Source of the DNA: an uncultured virus (IMG/VR IMGVR_UViG_3300033571_014589)
Lineage: Duplodnaviria > Heunggongvirae > Uroviricota > Caudoviricetes
Strand: one strand, 5' to 3'
Length of the DNA stretch: 64,000 nucleotides
IMG/VR virus record: IMGVR_UViG_3300033571_014589
Location: 1-64,000 of that record
Below, in pieces: positions 1,595 to 34,653 of this stretch. The stretch's first letter is position 1. Every line of letters starts with the position of its first letter. The position numbers and the translations under genes were made by a program. The notes beneath the pieces are model-generated. The model had not been told where the DNA came from and searched no databases. It saw only the letters and a list, made by a program, of their open reading frames with translations.

Positions 1595-1624
1595 AAAAAG
1601 GGACGATTTATTCGTCCCTTTTTT
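1595..1624. terminator. Bidirectional intrinsic terminator between capsid gene and convergent endonuclease
   Basis: AAAAAGGGACGA-TTTAT-TCGTCCCTTTTT hairpin with A/T tracts on both sides. Confidence 0.85.
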
Positions 1625-3239
1625 ATTTTAAAACCATTTCATATTTTAAATTCCCTGTATCCCATATTTTATCATAACCCAATTCAATCATGATTTGATT
1701 TTCGGTTTTATTTGAATCGTGTCCCATTTTAACTAAAACATCTTTTCTAAAATTAAATCGATAATATCTATGTATATAGTTTTTTGTGTAATAATAATTT
1801 GGTTTTGTTATACCAATAAAATTAAAACCCACTTTACCATAAAAACAATACTCATCAGACGGGGACCAATTTCTGTCGGCATATGTAATAATTCTATTGG
1901 GTTTATGTTCTTTAATAAAATGGTTCAATAATTTGGTGAACCCTCCAATAACATTTAAACTACAATATCTGTATATTTCATAATCCTTTAGTTTTTCATT
2001 TTTATTACCTAATGGTCTTCTCAAATTACCAAAAGTTAACAATGATACTATTTTATCATTGTACTTTAACGCATAAAAAATAGAAGACTTGTCATTCCCT
2101 TGTAGATGATTATCGTCTAAAAATTTTTTCTTTTCAATTTTACTTATTTGTTCAATTGTACATTTCCTTGCGTATATTTTTTCATTTTTTATATTAGTTA
2201 AGTTTTTGAGTCGCTCTTTTATTATTTCTTTTTTGGATTCCCATTCATCGGAAAATATGTGAATAAGTCTAATTTTGTTATCTAAACATTTTATTGTTTT
2301 ATCTATATGATATTTCTTAGTTTTTCCTTGTTTTTCAGAATGCCAATAAAGACCATTAAATTCTATTCCTATATTAAAATCAGGTAAAAAAATGTCTAAT
2401 TCAGTACCATTTAAAATTTTTTTAGTATTTGTTTCATATTTAATACCCAACGTATCTAAAAAAGAACATATTTCAATTTCAGATTTACTTCTATACGTTA
2501 TATTGTTATTCGAATTAATTAAATTTTGATTAAAGATATTGTTTAATTTTGTGGAAATTATATTATCTCCGTACAAAAGTTTGTATTTATCAACTGTTAT
2601 ATCGTGTAATTTTAAATAAGTATTCGATAAAATTTTTAATTTTTCATCACATATATTACAAATTATATAGTTTTCTTTATCATTAAATAATTCATTACGT
2701 TCCTCAAATTGTTTAAAAGTGTTAAAGTAATTAATATATTGTGGGTACTGTTCAATAAAATCGGATACTGATACATGTTCCTTTTCAATATGTTTTGTAA
2801 ACGACCCACTCTTATTTTTTAAATCAGTTGTTTCCCAATTACATATCGGACAAATTAATTGAGGTAATTCAATAACTTCTATTTTATTAAAGAATTCATT
2901 ATGAAAATGAACTCCATGTTCTTTAAAAAACATTCTACGTTTAAAAGAGGACGGGATGTCAACGTCAGGATAACATTCTTTAATGTGGGTAGTTATTGAA
3001 CCACTTTTATTTTCATAATCGTTGAACTTTTTAGAACACTTTTTACATTCTAAAATGTGTGGTGTTATTATAATATTTTTATTGTTCGTGTATTTTACTT
3101 TACCACCGACTTTTTTGATAGGTATATTATTATTTTTTAGTATGGTTTTTAATTTTAATTTACCTATTTTATATTCTTTACATATCTTATCAAGAGATGA
3201 ATCTGCTTCTAAATATTTTTTAATTATTTCATGTTCCAT
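1623..3239 (-). CDS. Hef-like homing endonuclease: Zn-finger repeats + DUF559/Vsr-like nuclease + Mom/GNAT-like C-terminal domain
   Basis: CKKC, CPIC..H..H and CNIC fingers; SKSEIEI..ELDIFLP..IGIEFNGLYWHS..IRLIHIFSDEW; C-terminal ARKC..FLDDNHLQG..TFG..IITYADRNWS..GF..IWDTG. Confidence 0.75.
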   Translation of the reverse strand: MEHEIIKKYLEADSSLDKICKEYKIGKLKLKTILKNNNIPIKKVGGKVKYTNNKNIIITPHILECKKCSKKFNDYENKSGSITTHIKECYPDVDIPSSFKRRMFFKEHGVHFHNEFFNKIEVIELPQLICPICNWETTDLKNKSGSFTKHIEKEHVSVSDFIEQYPQYINYFNTFKQFEERNELFNDKENYIICNICDEKLKILSNTYLKLHDITVDKYKLLYGDNIISTKLNNIFNQNLINSNNNITYRSKSEIEICSFLDTLGIKYETNTKKILNGTELDIFLPDFNIGIEFNGLYWHSEKQGKTKKYHIDKTIKCLDNKIRLIHIFSDEWESKKEIIKERLKNLTNIKNEKIYARKCTIEQISKIEKKKFLDDNHLQGNDKSSIFYALKYNDKIVSLLTFGNLRRPLGNKNEKLKDYEIYRYCSLNVIGGFTKLLNHFIKEHKPNRIITYADRNWSPSDEYCFYGKVGFNFIGITKPNYYYTKNYIHRYYRFNFRKDVLVKMGHDSNKTENQIMIELGYDKIWDTGNLKYEMVLK

Positions 3240-31512: not shown

Positions 31513-32212
31513 ATTCTAAAGTATCAAATTTGTTTATTAAATCTACCAAAACCCTAACATCTTGTTGACAGTATTCAGATATCTTATCCAAAATTCCCGC
31601 TTCCCAATAAGAAGAATGTACAATATTACCTGTTACTTCTCCTCCTTTTGAACTTTCACATCCCATTGCAACAGATATAAGTTCAAGTTGTGCGATAGAA
31701 AATTGGTTAATACCATTCCAAAATTCTTTTGTATCCAAAGCTTTAACCTCCCAAGGTTTTGTTTCAGAAGTTGGTAATATTCTTGCTGGTTGAAATCCGT
31801 TGATTACCATTCTTTTAAATAACATTGGAATGTCAAATCCTTTAATATTGTGTCCACACAATACGAAATCTAATTTTTGTATCTTATTTAGAAGTTTGAT
31901 AACATTTCTCAACAATTCCTTTTCATCGTCCATTGCATATGTTTGAGTTTGCATTTCACCTTTTTGATTAATAAAAGCAAAACTAGCCACAACAATTTTT
32001 GCAAATTCAGGAATCAATCCTGACCTTGAGATATAAACCTCTTCGGGTGTTTTTGACGAATCTTCAGGAAATCTTTTATGAAACCAATCTTGGTATTTCA
32101 TAAAAACATTATACATTTCTGGTTTATTTTTTTCAAGTTCAGATAATGTTGGAAATTCTCCAACGGTTTCTAAATCAAAAAATAGGAGTTTGGTTTTTGG
32201 ATATGGTAGCAT
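31502..32212 (-). CDS. Stand-alone DnaQ/PolB-type 3'-5' exonuclease
   Basis: FFDLETV (ExoI), GHNIKGFD (ExoII), YCQQDV (ExoIII). Confidence 0.85.
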   Translation of the reverse strand: MLPYPKTKLLFFDLETVGEFPTLSELEKNKPEMYNVFMKYQDWFHKRFPEDSSKTPEEVYISRSGLIPEFAKIVVASFAFINQKGEMQTQTYAMDDEKELLRNVIKLLNKIQKLDFVLCGHNIKGFDIPMLFKRMVINGFQPARILPTSETKPWEVKALDTKEFWNGINQFSIAQLELISVAMGCESSKGGEVTGNIVHSSYWEAGILDKISEYCQQDVRVLVDLINKFDTLEYVQ

Positions 32213-33459
32213 TATTTTAGTGTTTTATATAATTCAGCTCTATGTTTTGTTACAATATTTAAATCGTATTTGTCTTTTACAGTTTCGTATAATCTTTGAC
32301 CTAAGTCGTATGCCATATTTGGGTTTTGAATAAGTTTCTTCATTGCCTTTGCCCAATCAGAATGATTCCTTTTCTCATCAACCAAAATAGCATTACCATT
32401 AATAAAATTACCATTTTCTAAGCAATGTTTCAAGTCCAAAGTATAAGGACCCAAATTCGATGCAATAATTGCCTTTTTATAAAACCCCGCTTCAATCACT
32501 TTCAGTTGTGATTTTACTCTGTTAAAAATGTGGTTTACAATAGGAGCCAATGAAACATCAAACTTTGCATAGTTTTTAGCATATCCATTAATTGGTTCGG
32601 TCCATACCCTATTATAGAATTCTTCACCGTTCCAAGATTCCTGTCTATACTTCAATAAATAATTTTTATATTCAGGTGAAGTGAATTCATAATTTTTGGT
32701 AAAAATTTCTTCGTATCTCGCCCAAACCGTTTCTTCGGGTCTAATAGGTCTTTGTTTTTCTTCACCTGTTTGTGCATTAATTTCAGTCATTGTTCCTCTA
32801 ACATCAAAACCACATAAGAAAAATTGCGACTTATTTCTTAAATCATTACCAAGTACATCTGTACATCCTTTTAAAAGGTTTAAGTCATGCAAATGTGATG
32901 AACCACCAAGCCAACCAAATCTCATTTTATCAGATGGTTCGGTTTTTGCATTAAATTGTGGTTCTTTCGGGTTAATTGCGTTAGGTAATACAAAAACATT
33001 TTTATTGTATTTTTTAATTTCATCAGCAAAAATCGGTGTTGTGGTTGTTACATATTTTGCAACTTTAAGATTTGCGATAATTTTTTCGTGGATTTTATGT
33101 TGAACAACCAAATGGTGAACAGGGTGTTCTTTGGTTGGCAACCAATAATCATCCAAATCCATAACCGTTATAATTCCTAAACTATTTAAAATCTGAATCA
33201 TTGTATTTGATTTTTCATAATCAGGATTCAAACTTCTATGGAAGCAGACCATATCATATTTTGTCCAAAATGATATGTCATCCATATTTGGATTATAATC
33301 AATATCTACATGGAAATCATCAGGATATTGATTTTGTAGCATTATGTGGGGGTCTAAAGAACGAAATTTTCCTTAACCTACCCCTGTACGGTCAGATGCG
33401 AGAACAAGTATTCGAATCTTTTGACGACCATTCAGGGGCGAATCATTTTTTTGTGTCAT
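32212..33459 (-). CDS. GT-B (GT4-like) glycosyltransferase with in-frame TAA at codon 29 (recoding candidate or pseudogene)
   Basis: ATG 33459: MTQKNDSPLNGRQKIRILVLASDRTGVG*GKFRSLDPHI continues in frame into the 376-aa ORF (MDLDDYW, VLPNAI, FGWLGGSSH, FNRVKSQLKVIEAG). Confidence 0.75.
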
Positions 33460-33514: not shown

Positions 33515-33543
33515 AATATAATATCTAAGATTATTTAAGTCAA
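33515..33543 (-). promoter_or_regulatory. Putative sigma70-type promoter of the glycosylation operon
   Basis: TTGACT-17 nt-TATATT. Confidence 0.55.
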
Positions 33544-33577
33544 TCTGTTTTTTCTATTATTAATATATTTATCTAAA

Positions 33578-34060
33578 ATGAAAGAACTAATCAGAAAAAT
33601 ATTAAAAGAAGAAACCGAAGAAGTTCTTGAACTTCCATCAATCAAATATTTTCTTAATGATTGGAAATGGGTTATTAAATTTGTTAAAAGTGAAGGAAAT
33701 CCATTATTTTCAATTCAAGAAAGTCTTATTTTAAGACACAATAGTCTAAAAACTCTTGGAAGATTATATTCAGTTGAAGGTAATTTGGACTTATATGGAT
33801 GTAAAAACCTAACATCTCTTGGAAAACTATCACATGTTGGGGAATGGTTGGATTTAAGAGGAACAAATATAACATCTCTTGGAAATTTAACACATGTCGG
33901 TGGAGGTTTGGATTTATATGAATGTAAAAGCTTAACATCTCTTGGAAGACTACAACATGTTGGTGGTCTTTTGGATTTAAGAGATACACCAATGGCTAAT
34001 GAATATTCCGAAGAAGAAATACGAAAAATGGTTAATGTTGAAGGAAATATTTATCTATAA
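33578..34060 (+). CDS. Leucine-rich-repeat-like protein with MKELIRKILKEE leader
   Basis: 4-5 repeats of L..VGG.LDL..(C)..LTSLG; aacatctcttggaa repeated at DNA level; TATTTAT upstream. Confidence 0.75.
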   Translation: MKELIRKILKEETEEVLELPSIKYFLNDWKWVIKFVKSEGNPLFSIQESLILRHNSLKTLGRLYSVEGNLDLYGCKNLTSLGKLSHVGEWLDLRGTNITSLGNLTHVGGGLDLYECKSLTSLGRLQHVGGLLDLRDTPMANEYSEEEIRKMVNVEGNIYL

Positions 34061-34068
34061 TGAAAGAA

Positions 34069-34653
34069 CTATTGTACTTTCTTTATTTTTGTCACCTTAC
34101 CTTCGAAAATATGCTTTCCTACCTTTAATTGAAGGGTTTCGTTAGATTTTGATTCACCCTCAACAACTAATCCTGCTTTAGATAGTTCTTCTTTAATTGT
34201 ATCTCTAACAGTGTCTCTAATAAGATTTCTTATTGAATTTAAGTCTATACTTTCAGTTATATTCTTTTGTGTTTGAGTATTAGGTTGTTTCTTTTCAACC
34301 CCCATTAATTTCTGAGCCCCCTCAATAACTTCTTCTGATAGAAAACTAGTATTTAAACCTGGTACTGTTGGTTTTTCAATAGGGTTTTCAATCATTAATT
34401 TTTTTATTTCATCAGGTAATTTTGAATTTAAAATTCTATCTTGTGTAATTGGAACATTTTCATTTCTTACAACCGTTGAAGATTGTTCACCCAAAAATTC
34501 TTGGGGTATGTTATATGTTGCGGGTAAAGGATTATATGATTCTACTTGTGGTACGGTATTAGTCATAGGTAAAGAATTCGCAGACCTAGGTAGTTCATTA
34601 TGTTTATCCATTATTTTTTTCGAAATTGCTAATTTTGACATTAAATCATCCAT
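34069..34653 (-). CDS. Hypothetical protein
   Basis: 194-aa ORF; ILNSKLPDEIKKLMIENPI; ITES/IKEE sites. Confidence 0.65.
   Translation of the reverse strand: MDDLMSKLAISKKIMDKHNELPRSANSLPMTNTVPQVESYNPLPATYNIPQEFLGEQSSTVVRNENVPITQDRILNSKLPDEIKKLMIENPIEKPTVPGLNTSFLSEEVIEGAQKLMGVEKKQPNTQTQKNITESIDLNSIRNLIRDTVRDTIKEELSKAGLVVEGESKSNETLQLKVGKHIFEGKVTKIKKVQ

Follow-up and report, generated by a model that had tools for sequence, protein, structure and literature searches.

A probable stop-hop in a phage glycosyltransferase gene, borne by an apparently mobile hairpin cassette

The gene described here encodes a glycosyltransferase and lies on the minus strand of a 64,000-nucleotide (nt) stretch of DNA from an uncultured tailed virus of the Caudoviricetes (IMG/VR record IMGVR_UViG_3300033571_014589, positions 1 to 64,000), hereafter the window. 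From an ATG at 33459, 28 codons run up to a glycine codon, GGT, which is followed by an in-frame TAA stop, a second glycine codon, GGA, and then AAA TTT CGT. Downstream, and in the same frame, lies the annotated 376-amino-acid open reading frame (ORF), 33342-32212, of a glycosyltransferase with a GT-B fold. The site is a candidate for programmed translational hopping, i.e., a short bypass in which a peptidyl-tRNA leaves one codon (take-off) and re-pairs with another beyond the stop (landing). Re-reading of the minus strand bears out the Gly-TAA-Gly site and its coordinates as given in a first-pass annotation of the window.

Table 1. Features of the candidate hop site and its surroundings, in window coordinates
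Feature	Position	Strand	Remarks
Start codon ATG	33459-33457	minus	Followed by MTQKNDSPLNGRQKIRILVLASDRTGV up to take-off GGT
Start and 13-codon N-terminal extension MTQKNDSPLNGRQ	33421..33459	minus	Without counterpart in unrecoded homologs
Coding hairpin	33374..33445	minus	Core arms 33439-33425 and 33394-33380, apical helix, outer helix 33445-33441/33378-33374
Take-off codon GGT	33376..33378	minus	Gly28, equivalent to invariant family Gly17
In-frame stop TAA	33373..33375	minus	Putative A-site codon at take-off
Landing codon GGA	33370..33372	minus	With TAA, the 6-nt insert relative to the family
Resume codon AAA (33369-33367) and remaining GT-B (GT4-like) body	32212..33369	minus	Through its stop
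160-amino-acid repeat-containing ORF	33578..34060	plus	In the slot of the relatives' endonuclease gene; without family match
Possible endonuclease remnant, about 22 nt	33531..33553	minus	Like the KNKIDLI-coding stretch of L007; weak
Conserved upstream gene ending KVGKHIFEGKVTKIKKVQ	34069..34653	minus	Directly precedes the glycosyltransferase in unrecoded relatives

The stop interrupts an invariant motif of a large protein family. The read-through protein has roughly 8000 relatives: of 8000 scored, 7993 have E <= 1e-5, and a length of 402-404 amino acids is typical. Of the 118 homologs listed besides the window's own, five are N-terminally truncated calls, and all 113 that have the N terminus read SDxxG-VG-KFRS, with a single glycine and no extra residue. 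In a 41-sequence alignment, S11, D12, G15, V16, G17, K18, F19, R20, and S21 are invariant. Because 113 of 113 homologs have one glycine here, the window carries an exact 6-nt insert between G17 and K18; TGVGKFR with one glycine is also the form that the first-pass annotation had tied to a hop. The N terminus of the window protein is 11 residues longer than that of the family, and the MSKIK start of homologs that are not interrupted (unrecoded) aligns with its Q13-K14.

An AlphaFold (AF2) model of a close homolog, P0004, has a two-domain GT-B fold (predicted local distance difference test score 86, predicted template modeling score 0.84), with beta-1 at residues 4-9 and helix alpha-1 beginning at residue 16. 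Foldseek matches this model to GlgM, MshA, PglA, BshA, and PimA (E 1.7e-12 to about 1e-9, template modeling score about 0.6), and the predicted fold is GT4-like GT-B. The Pfam family Glyco_trans_1_4 scored 22.2 bits, under its cutoff of 27, and a PDB sequence search with the glycosyltransferase returned no match. By the model, a protein begun at the annotated Met (33342) would be without beta-1, the Gly loop, and most of alpha-1, in agreement with the earlier suggestion that the peptide before the stop holds a beta-1/Gly-loop segment missing from the annotated ORF. The 376-residue call is a warning for annotation: gene callers shorten such genes to a downstream Met. Five database homologs (P0028, P0030, P0033, P0034, and P0036) are calls of 346-360 amino acids that start at internal Met residues, and they may be further recoded genes shortened in this way.

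A hairpin encoded within the gene directly precedes the site. The minus-strand segment 33462-33370 folds at -27 kcal/mol (z = -3.31), a value equaled by 1 of 200 shuffles. Of the 15 positions in its core arms, 14 are paired, and a single nt separates the stem from GGT, both as first annotated; CCCC lies at 33438-33435 and GGGG at 33384-33381, and the outer helix of this fold takes in the take-off codon. The hairpin is rich in G and C, and the window has a G+C content of 29%. The full record (71.5 kb) was scanned for stops between codons alike in their first two bases, preceded by a frame of 20 or more codons that contains an ATG and followed by an open frame of 100 or more codons, and this site was the sole result.

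Independent assemblies contain the same stop. Logan contigs from three sequencing runs, each from a different study, cover it without any difference or listed indel (X1, 563 nt; X2, 338 nt; and X3, 1750 nt, reaching 33410). Run X1 may be the source sample; it also holds a second strain that differs from the window at 13 positions and retains the hop site. The same 120 nt occur in another IMG/VR contig, L008, of 190,552 nt.

Related sites recur in diverged genes. A protein-based scan of IMG/VR led to L007 and L056, two diverged loci that share the architecture of the window site but read GGC TGA GGT. Among viral contigs, a DNA scan anchored on the extension motif plus GGGGT yielded 23 stretches (17 glycosyltransferase cassettes, 6 unrelated), and one anchored on the hop-site motif only yielded 41 (28 cassettes, 13 unrelated); among metagenome contigs, the extension motif only gave 48 (40 cassettes, 8 unrelated). 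The DNA pattern CCCNTGAATGGTCGT was rejected as too unspecific, with at least 112 stretches among the matches listed and glycosyltransferase cassettes at just 10 loci. After de-duplication there were 146 unique loci, 56 recoded and 90 unrecoded. Searches of a cultured-phage collection gave no nucleotide match to the glycosyltransferase locus and, at the protein level, only glycosyltransferase relatives at 35% identity or less; the cassette is present in no cultured phage of that collection.

All 56 unique cassettes have a stop at the site (TGA in 47, TAA in 7, TAG in 2), and in nearly every one it is flanked by codons that one tRNA could read. Take-off codons are GGC (39), GGT (16), and AGC (1); landing codons are GGT (44), GGC (6), GGA (5), and AGC (1). 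The commonest type is GGC TGA GGT, with 35 cassettes, followed by GGT TGA GGT (6), GGT TAA GGA (the window's type) and GGC TGA GGC (3 each), GGT TAA GGT and GGT TAA GGC (2 each), and GGC TGA GGA and GGT TGA GGA (1 each). The three remaining types, GGT-TA-GGT, GGT-TA-GGC, and AGC-TG-AGC, are represented once each and have a gap of 5 nt. In 51 of the 56, the tRNA that reads the take-off codon is cognate to the landing codon as well (GGY to GGY or AGC to AGC); in the other five, the window included, GGY to GGA matches two of three bases. This pattern is not confined to the scan that sought it: 43 cassettes came from searches without a hop-site constraint, and all 43 display it. Specifically, 40 of 40 extension-anchored metagenome glycosyltransferase matches carry the stop, and the extension is found in 28 of 28 glycosyltransferase cassettes from the site-anchored scan.

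The 5-nt gaps are informative about the reading frame. GGT-TA-GGT occurs at L278/L158 and L297, GGT-TA-GGC at L296, and AGC-TG-AGC at L284; the TAG-type gaps lie on three contigs and the AGC type on one. In these cassettes, the last base of the stop is also the first base of the landing codon. Reading in the 0 or the +1 frame ends at a stop, and the KFRS frame is regained only by a +5/+2 move. Their bodies are intact where sequence suffices (392 and 423 amino acids). Overall, the downstream ORF is in the upstream frame in 53 unique cassettes and out of frame in 3 of like architecture. At L284, both the take-off and the landing codon are Ser codons (AGC), and unrecoded GVSKFRS relatives exist (L063). 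A change of both codons is the mark that pairing by one tRNA at take-off and landing would leave.

Both sides of the stop are under purifying selection. In recoded cassettes, the ratio of nonsynonymous to synonymous differences (pN/pS) stands at 0.25 over the 16-codon stretch that ends at take-off and at 0.23 over the first 30 codons past landing. The same ratio ranges over 0.87-1.88 in out-of-frame controls and is 0.70 in the six extension codons. The glycosyltransferase body spans at least 370 amino acids in 42 of 42 recoded loci that have at least 1180 nt of downstream sequence. The first in-frame ATG after landing comes at 9 codons in 24 cassettes and at 13 codons in 9; in the remaining 23, it comes at least 28 codons past landing or is absent within 100. 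No conserved alternative start lies downstream of landing across the 56 cassettes.

The hairpin is conserved with covariation. Over the 87 nt ending at take-off, 42 unique recoded cassettes average -30.3 kcal/mol with a mean z of -4.7, and all 42 have z < -2; 82 unrecoded genes average -13.3 kcal/mol and z -0.93. The structure is a long, irregular hairpin of about 65 nt whose base, AACCCC:GGGGUU, abuts the take-off codon. Swapping arms between cassettes costs about 5 kcal/mol (native mean -30.35, chimeras -25.15), and 0 of 2000 permutations reach the native value. On a MAFFT alignment, the majority structure, which came from one of the sequences and is somewhat favored by that origin, pairs in 87.0% of cells versus 83.2% when shuffled (0 of 500), and slid registers pair in 31-51%. 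Double-change cells number 44 versus 17.1 in shuffles (0 of 500). One subgroup (L342, L362, and L373) has a wholly different 5' arm (AACCYCGGUUGGAUC), encoding the peptide QPRLDHRE, that still pairs with the 3' arm of the same cassette. GGGG is supplied by a Gly codon that is spelled GGG in 56 of 56 recoded genes versus 5 of 90 unrecoded ones. Rfam contained nothing at threshold (the best named hit, RsaF, scored 18.8 bits versus 60). Thus, the stop, the duplicated codon, and the covarying hairpin are kept together in 56 unique cassettes, the conservation by which the first-pass annotation had proposed to judge its reading.

The cassette has a history distinct from that of the gene in which it sits. 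A tree of 100 glycosyltransferase bodies, made by a quick IQ-TREE search, includes 7 recoded rows. Explaining them takes 7 changes, which does not improve on shuffled labels, and the sister of every one of them is an unrecoded gene. Between recoded and unrecoded sisters, nucleotide identity is high in the body and collapses 5' of a region just past the hop site. By ungapped comparison, cassettes that are 99-100% alike are joined to bodies merely 78-82% alike. By these comparisons, the extension, hairpin, stop, and duplicated codon form one mobile cassette that moves independently of the glycosyltransferase body.

The recoded genes are preceded by an ORF of about 300 amino acids, which is missing from their unrecoded sisters. 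Among loci with at least 1100 nt of upstream sequence, tblastn matches this endonuclease at 45 of 47 recoded and 1 of 87 unrecoded loci. Its product matches NUMOD3 at 32.3 bits (cutoff 20.4), the PD-(D/E)xK-type family REase_MTES_1575 at 19-23 bits, which is below cutoff, and phrog_3339, 'homing endonuclease', at 2.8e-11; relatives of its nuclease domain in cultured phages (15 records, matched in that domain only) are annotated 'VSR endonuclease'. These matches identify the ORF as a predicted free-standing NUMOD3/Vsr-like homing endonuclease, with which the cassette travels. The gene decays in a series: the full-length ORF is present at 36 loci (at L007, for example, it spans 573-1481), a 3' remnant (the last 35-85 codons) at 9, and none at 2. 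The two loci without it are the window and L282. In the 71.5-kb record, which is about 23% complete, the cassette endonuclease has no match, and the endonuclease gene is gone from the window, where the hop module alone remains. The possible remnant in Table 1 aligns locally with z of about 4.5-4.7 against L007 and L056, but with z of -0.7 to 1.7 against the four nearest cassettes.

Several alleles show other arrangements of endonuclease and target. L006 (744-1508) is the only unrecoded allele with the endonuclease upstream, and its glycosyltransferase reads GVGRYRS (CGG TAT) rather than GVGKFRS; this may be an alternative way to alter the target site without a hop. Cassette L320 has the hop together with GRYRS. 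In six TAA/TAG-type cassettes (L149, L158, L296, L344, L351, and L352), the endonuclease ORF, which ends ...FAPEWS or FAPERS, enters the glycosyltransferase extension in another frame and therefore overlaps the hairpin 5' arm. The window itself encodes a second free-standing homing-endonuclease-like protein at 1623-3239 (minus strand, 538 amino acids), which matches phrog_3339 at 5e-96 and also an HNH endonuclease PHROG. It shares with the cassette endonuclease just short nuclease-core and N-terminal helix-turn-helix-like stretches.

Taken together, we consider it highly probable that the window site is a programmed translational hop, i.e., a short bypass of the +5/+6 stop-hop type. The notion is that ribosomes starting at ATG 33459 would translate 28 codons through the long hairpin and arrive with GGT in the P site and TAA in the A site. 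The peptidyl-tRNA-Gly would then leave GGT, the mRNA would shift by 6 nt, and the tRNA would re-pair with GGA, so that GGA, we infer, is not decoded anew and decoding resumes at AAA. The predicted product is a 413-amino-acid GT-B enzyme with the family-normal loop SDRTGVGKFRS. Two features could drive the move. The stop would be decoded slowly, and the CCCC:GGGG base of the hairpin could re-zip behind the ribosome, drawing the mRNA 5'-ward by 5-6 nt; the upper part of the hairpin can already have reformed there before the last pairs zip. The extension might contribute as a nascent-peptide signal, and GGGG as a Shine-Dalgarno-like element. The RF2 gene prfB likewise has a stop in the A site and a G-rich Shine-Dalgarno-like element a few nt 5' of the P-site codon, although its shift is +1 onto an overlapping codon, unlike the hop here; any such role for GGGG in this phage is speculative. 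Refolding of a 5' stem-loop has been modeled for T4 gene 60, as set out in the accounts of Atkins et al. (2016, PMC5009743) and Wills et al. (2024).

As to what the insert is for, the first-pass annotation had supposed that the site throttles the glycosyltransferase and, by polarity, an operon of about 20 kb. That idea finds no support, and the comparison points instead to a mobile endonuclease cassette. By analogy with T4 gene 60 and MobA, we infer that the insert breaks an endonuclease target within a conserved coding stretch while the hop would keep the enzyme intact. The insert probably shields the cassette's own DNA from its putative endonuclease.

Several observations weigh against this reading or parts of it. 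The window's GGT-to-GGA pair is mismatched at the third base for a tRNA-Gly with a GCC anticodon, a caveat raised in the first-pass annotation that holds, GGA being the landing codon in just 5 of 56 cassettes; the window encodes no tRNA gene. The AGC/AGC case comes from one contig. Given the MAFFT alignment as input, RNAalifold recovered just the 4-pair CCCC:GGGG helix because the 5'-arm register varies among subgroups, and per-sequence folds, the arm-swap test, and pair counts were therefore used instead. When the take-off codon occupies the P site, the basal GGGG sits inside the ribosome, so that the role of the stem as a motor is drawn from the work on gene 60. A Shine-Dalgarno role for GGGG is doubtful because a Shine-Dalgarno core precedes only 8 of the 41 window ORFs (9% background). 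The DNA scans that found cassettes were all anchored on the extension or the hop-site motif, and more divergent forms of the cassette are therefore unsampled. Finally, the sequencing runs listed as holding the stretch include no RNA run.

Among other explanations, the closest to a hop is a codon skip, or a +2/+3 shift without re-pairing, after which a new Gly-tRNA would decode the next GGN and yield GVGGKFRS. This would follow the same frame as the hop in every cassette, those with 5-nt gaps included, and the two products are inseparable by sequence alone. However, it leaves unexplained the constant match between the take-off codon and the codon beyond the gap, which holds even where both are AGC, and an extra residue at the site occurs in 0 of 113 family members. 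We regard it as unlikely.

A second explanation is that the gene is broken, having been invaded by a selfish element whose homing outpaces selection, and makes a 28-amino-acid peptide and perhaps a truncated protein from a downstream Met. The cassette is indeed mobile and endonuclease-linked, intact bodies could reflect recent capture, and the window offers an in-frame Met 11 codons past the stop. Yet a start at that Met would, by the model, delete beta-1 and most of alpha-1, and in 23 of the 56 cassettes the first 13 codons past landing contain no in-frame ATG. Cassettes that have diverged to a synonymous difference (pS) of 0.52 keep a glycosyltransferase-like peptide before the stop (the pN/pS of 0.25) and matched codons, bodies are intact in all 42 loci with enough downstream sequence, and the cassette is retained at 11 loci where the endonuclease is lost or truncated. 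A broken gene is thus quite improbable.

Readthrough of the stop by a near-cognate or suppressor tRNA, giving GVGxGKFRS, would suit the 6-nt-gap cassettes, in which the stop is in frame. Plain readthrough is excluded in the three 5-nt-gap types because they put it out of frame. Moreover, all three stop codons are used at one site, readthrough has no need for a duplicated codon, and the two extra residues that it would add are never seen in the family. We judge it very unlikely. The first-pass annotation had offered a structure-driven 6-nt hop or readthrough; the hop is upheld by register and covariation, and plain readthrough falls with the 5-nt gaps. Genetic code 25, in which TGA encodes Gly, was likewise rejected, given that the window has TAA and that the glycosyltransferase and endonuclease ORFs are open under table 11.

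An artefact of assembly or sequencing, or a recent mutation private to the window genome, has in its favor only the prior expectation for an in-frame stop, and its probability is negligible against identical sequence in contigs of three studies and a second IMG/VR contig and against 56 unique related cassettes from viral and metagenome collections. The stop arrangement is neither the assembly error nor the pseudogene that the first-pass annotation had entertained: TAA is present in independent contigs, and stop and stem recur with covariation.

To our knowledge, programmed bypassing is known almost entirely from T4 gene 60 and its homologs, plus yeast mitochondria. MobA, the endonuclease of the gene 60 system, is an HNH enzyme, unlike the NUMOD3/Vsr-like endonuclease here. 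Gene 60, as it is portrayed in the accounts consulted, shares several features with the present site. A Gly take-off codon is followed by a stop, the landing codon is matched, take-off and landing covary, an N-terminal extension is a possible nascent-peptide signal, and a stem-loop lies upstream. Likewise, a bypass module and a free-standing homing endonuclease make up one mobile cassette at an invariant motif, the endonuclease decays and the bypass stays, and some cassettes have Vsr-type endonucleases. Manning and Atkins (2022; bioRxiv 10.1101/2022.08.31.505936) describe the MobA/gene 60 insert as protecting its own DNA and the endonuclease as lost with bypass retained.

The differences are equally clear. 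The gap is 5-6 nt rather than the 50 nt of gene 60, with no take-off stem-loop or mini-Shine-Dalgarno within it, and all of the structure, which is strongly conserved, sits 5' of take-off; the 5' stem-loop of gene 60 is described as not conserved (10.1101/2022.08.31.505936). The host gene encodes a GT-B glycosyltransferase, not a topoisomerase (the Toprim motif of Topo2L gene 39/60), and according to the same preprint MobA elements reside exclusively in Topo2L. Moreover, the gene here is not split into two ORFs with tails. Because host gene, gap length, signal layout, and endonuclease differ, the cassette is an analogue rather than a member of the gene 60/MobA family. It would represent an independent origin of the same solution: an endonuclease and a bypass insert at an invariant Gly.

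Synthetic stop-hop sites of the kind built by Weiss and colleagues reportedly worked at low efficiency. These E. coli sites (+5 and +6; Weiss et al. 1987, via PMC5009743) have, as recounted there, exactly the arrangement found here. They are engineered and unassisted, whereas the present one occurs in nature, is conserved, and comes with a hairpin of its own. The review of Atkins et al. (2016, PMC5009743) states of in-frame stop hopping in nature that 'no occurences are known', and our searches of the literature on stop-hops, phage glycosyltransferase bypassing, and bacteriophage bypassing since 2019 found none.

The nearest natural short case that we found in the literature, going by its published description, is the 10-nt UUA bypass proposed for the terminase gene of Streptomyces phage phiHau3 (Antonov et al. 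2023, PMC10732093), which has a short coding gap with a proposed 5' stem-loop and landing codon and for which a junction peptide obtained in E. coli supports bypassing. Unlike the present site, it has a rare sense codon, UUA, in place of a stop, and is proposed to act as a regulatory sensor of host tRNA state; few genes of this type are known, and the portions of that report consulted mention no link to homing endonucleases (PMC10732093). The byp elements of Magnusiomyces mitochondria, as described, are also mobile coding inserts neutralized by bypassing between matched or wobble-matched take-off and landing codons. They are mitochondrial and tens of nt long (27-55 nt), and the descriptions consulted mention no endonuclease partner, unlike what is found here.

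Given these comparisons, we lean toward viewing the site as the first natural, maintained stop-hop: a portable module of hairpin, stop, and duplicated codon that is borne by a Vsr-type endonuclease and made harmless within an invariant catalytic-loop motif. With a gap of only 5-6 nt and a defined, covarying hairpin, the contributions of stop, landing codon, and mRNA refolding are testable in small constructs. If the hairpin alone drives a 5-6-nt pull on the mRNA, the cassette would offer a minimal system for ribosome take-off and landing. The same trick may hide behind other 'interrupted' genes that adjoin homing endonucleases.

The window represents part of a contractile-tailed phage genome and contains genes for a tail sheath, a family-B polymerase, and a primase-helicase; CheckV is the source of the completeness estimate given above. 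The glycosyltransferase heads a co-directional minus-strand array that runs from 33459 down to about 12223. The array includes GT2-type and GT61 proteins, a fused GT2-like/GT4 protein, a nucleotidyltransferase, a uridine-kinase-family protein, and a class II aldolase, and further a dUTPase, a PolB-type 3'-5' exonuclease, and PhoH.

Finally, a short segment at 33578-33625, the first 45 or so nt of the plus-strand repeat-containing ORF, stands out in the metagenome data. Summed contig depth in its two fullest bins is about 150-390 in three of four metagenome runs and 44-52 in X3, with flanks at about 0-20, and many short contigs there have loose ends on both sides. The segment resembles a short, widely shared module with which many genes or elements begin.

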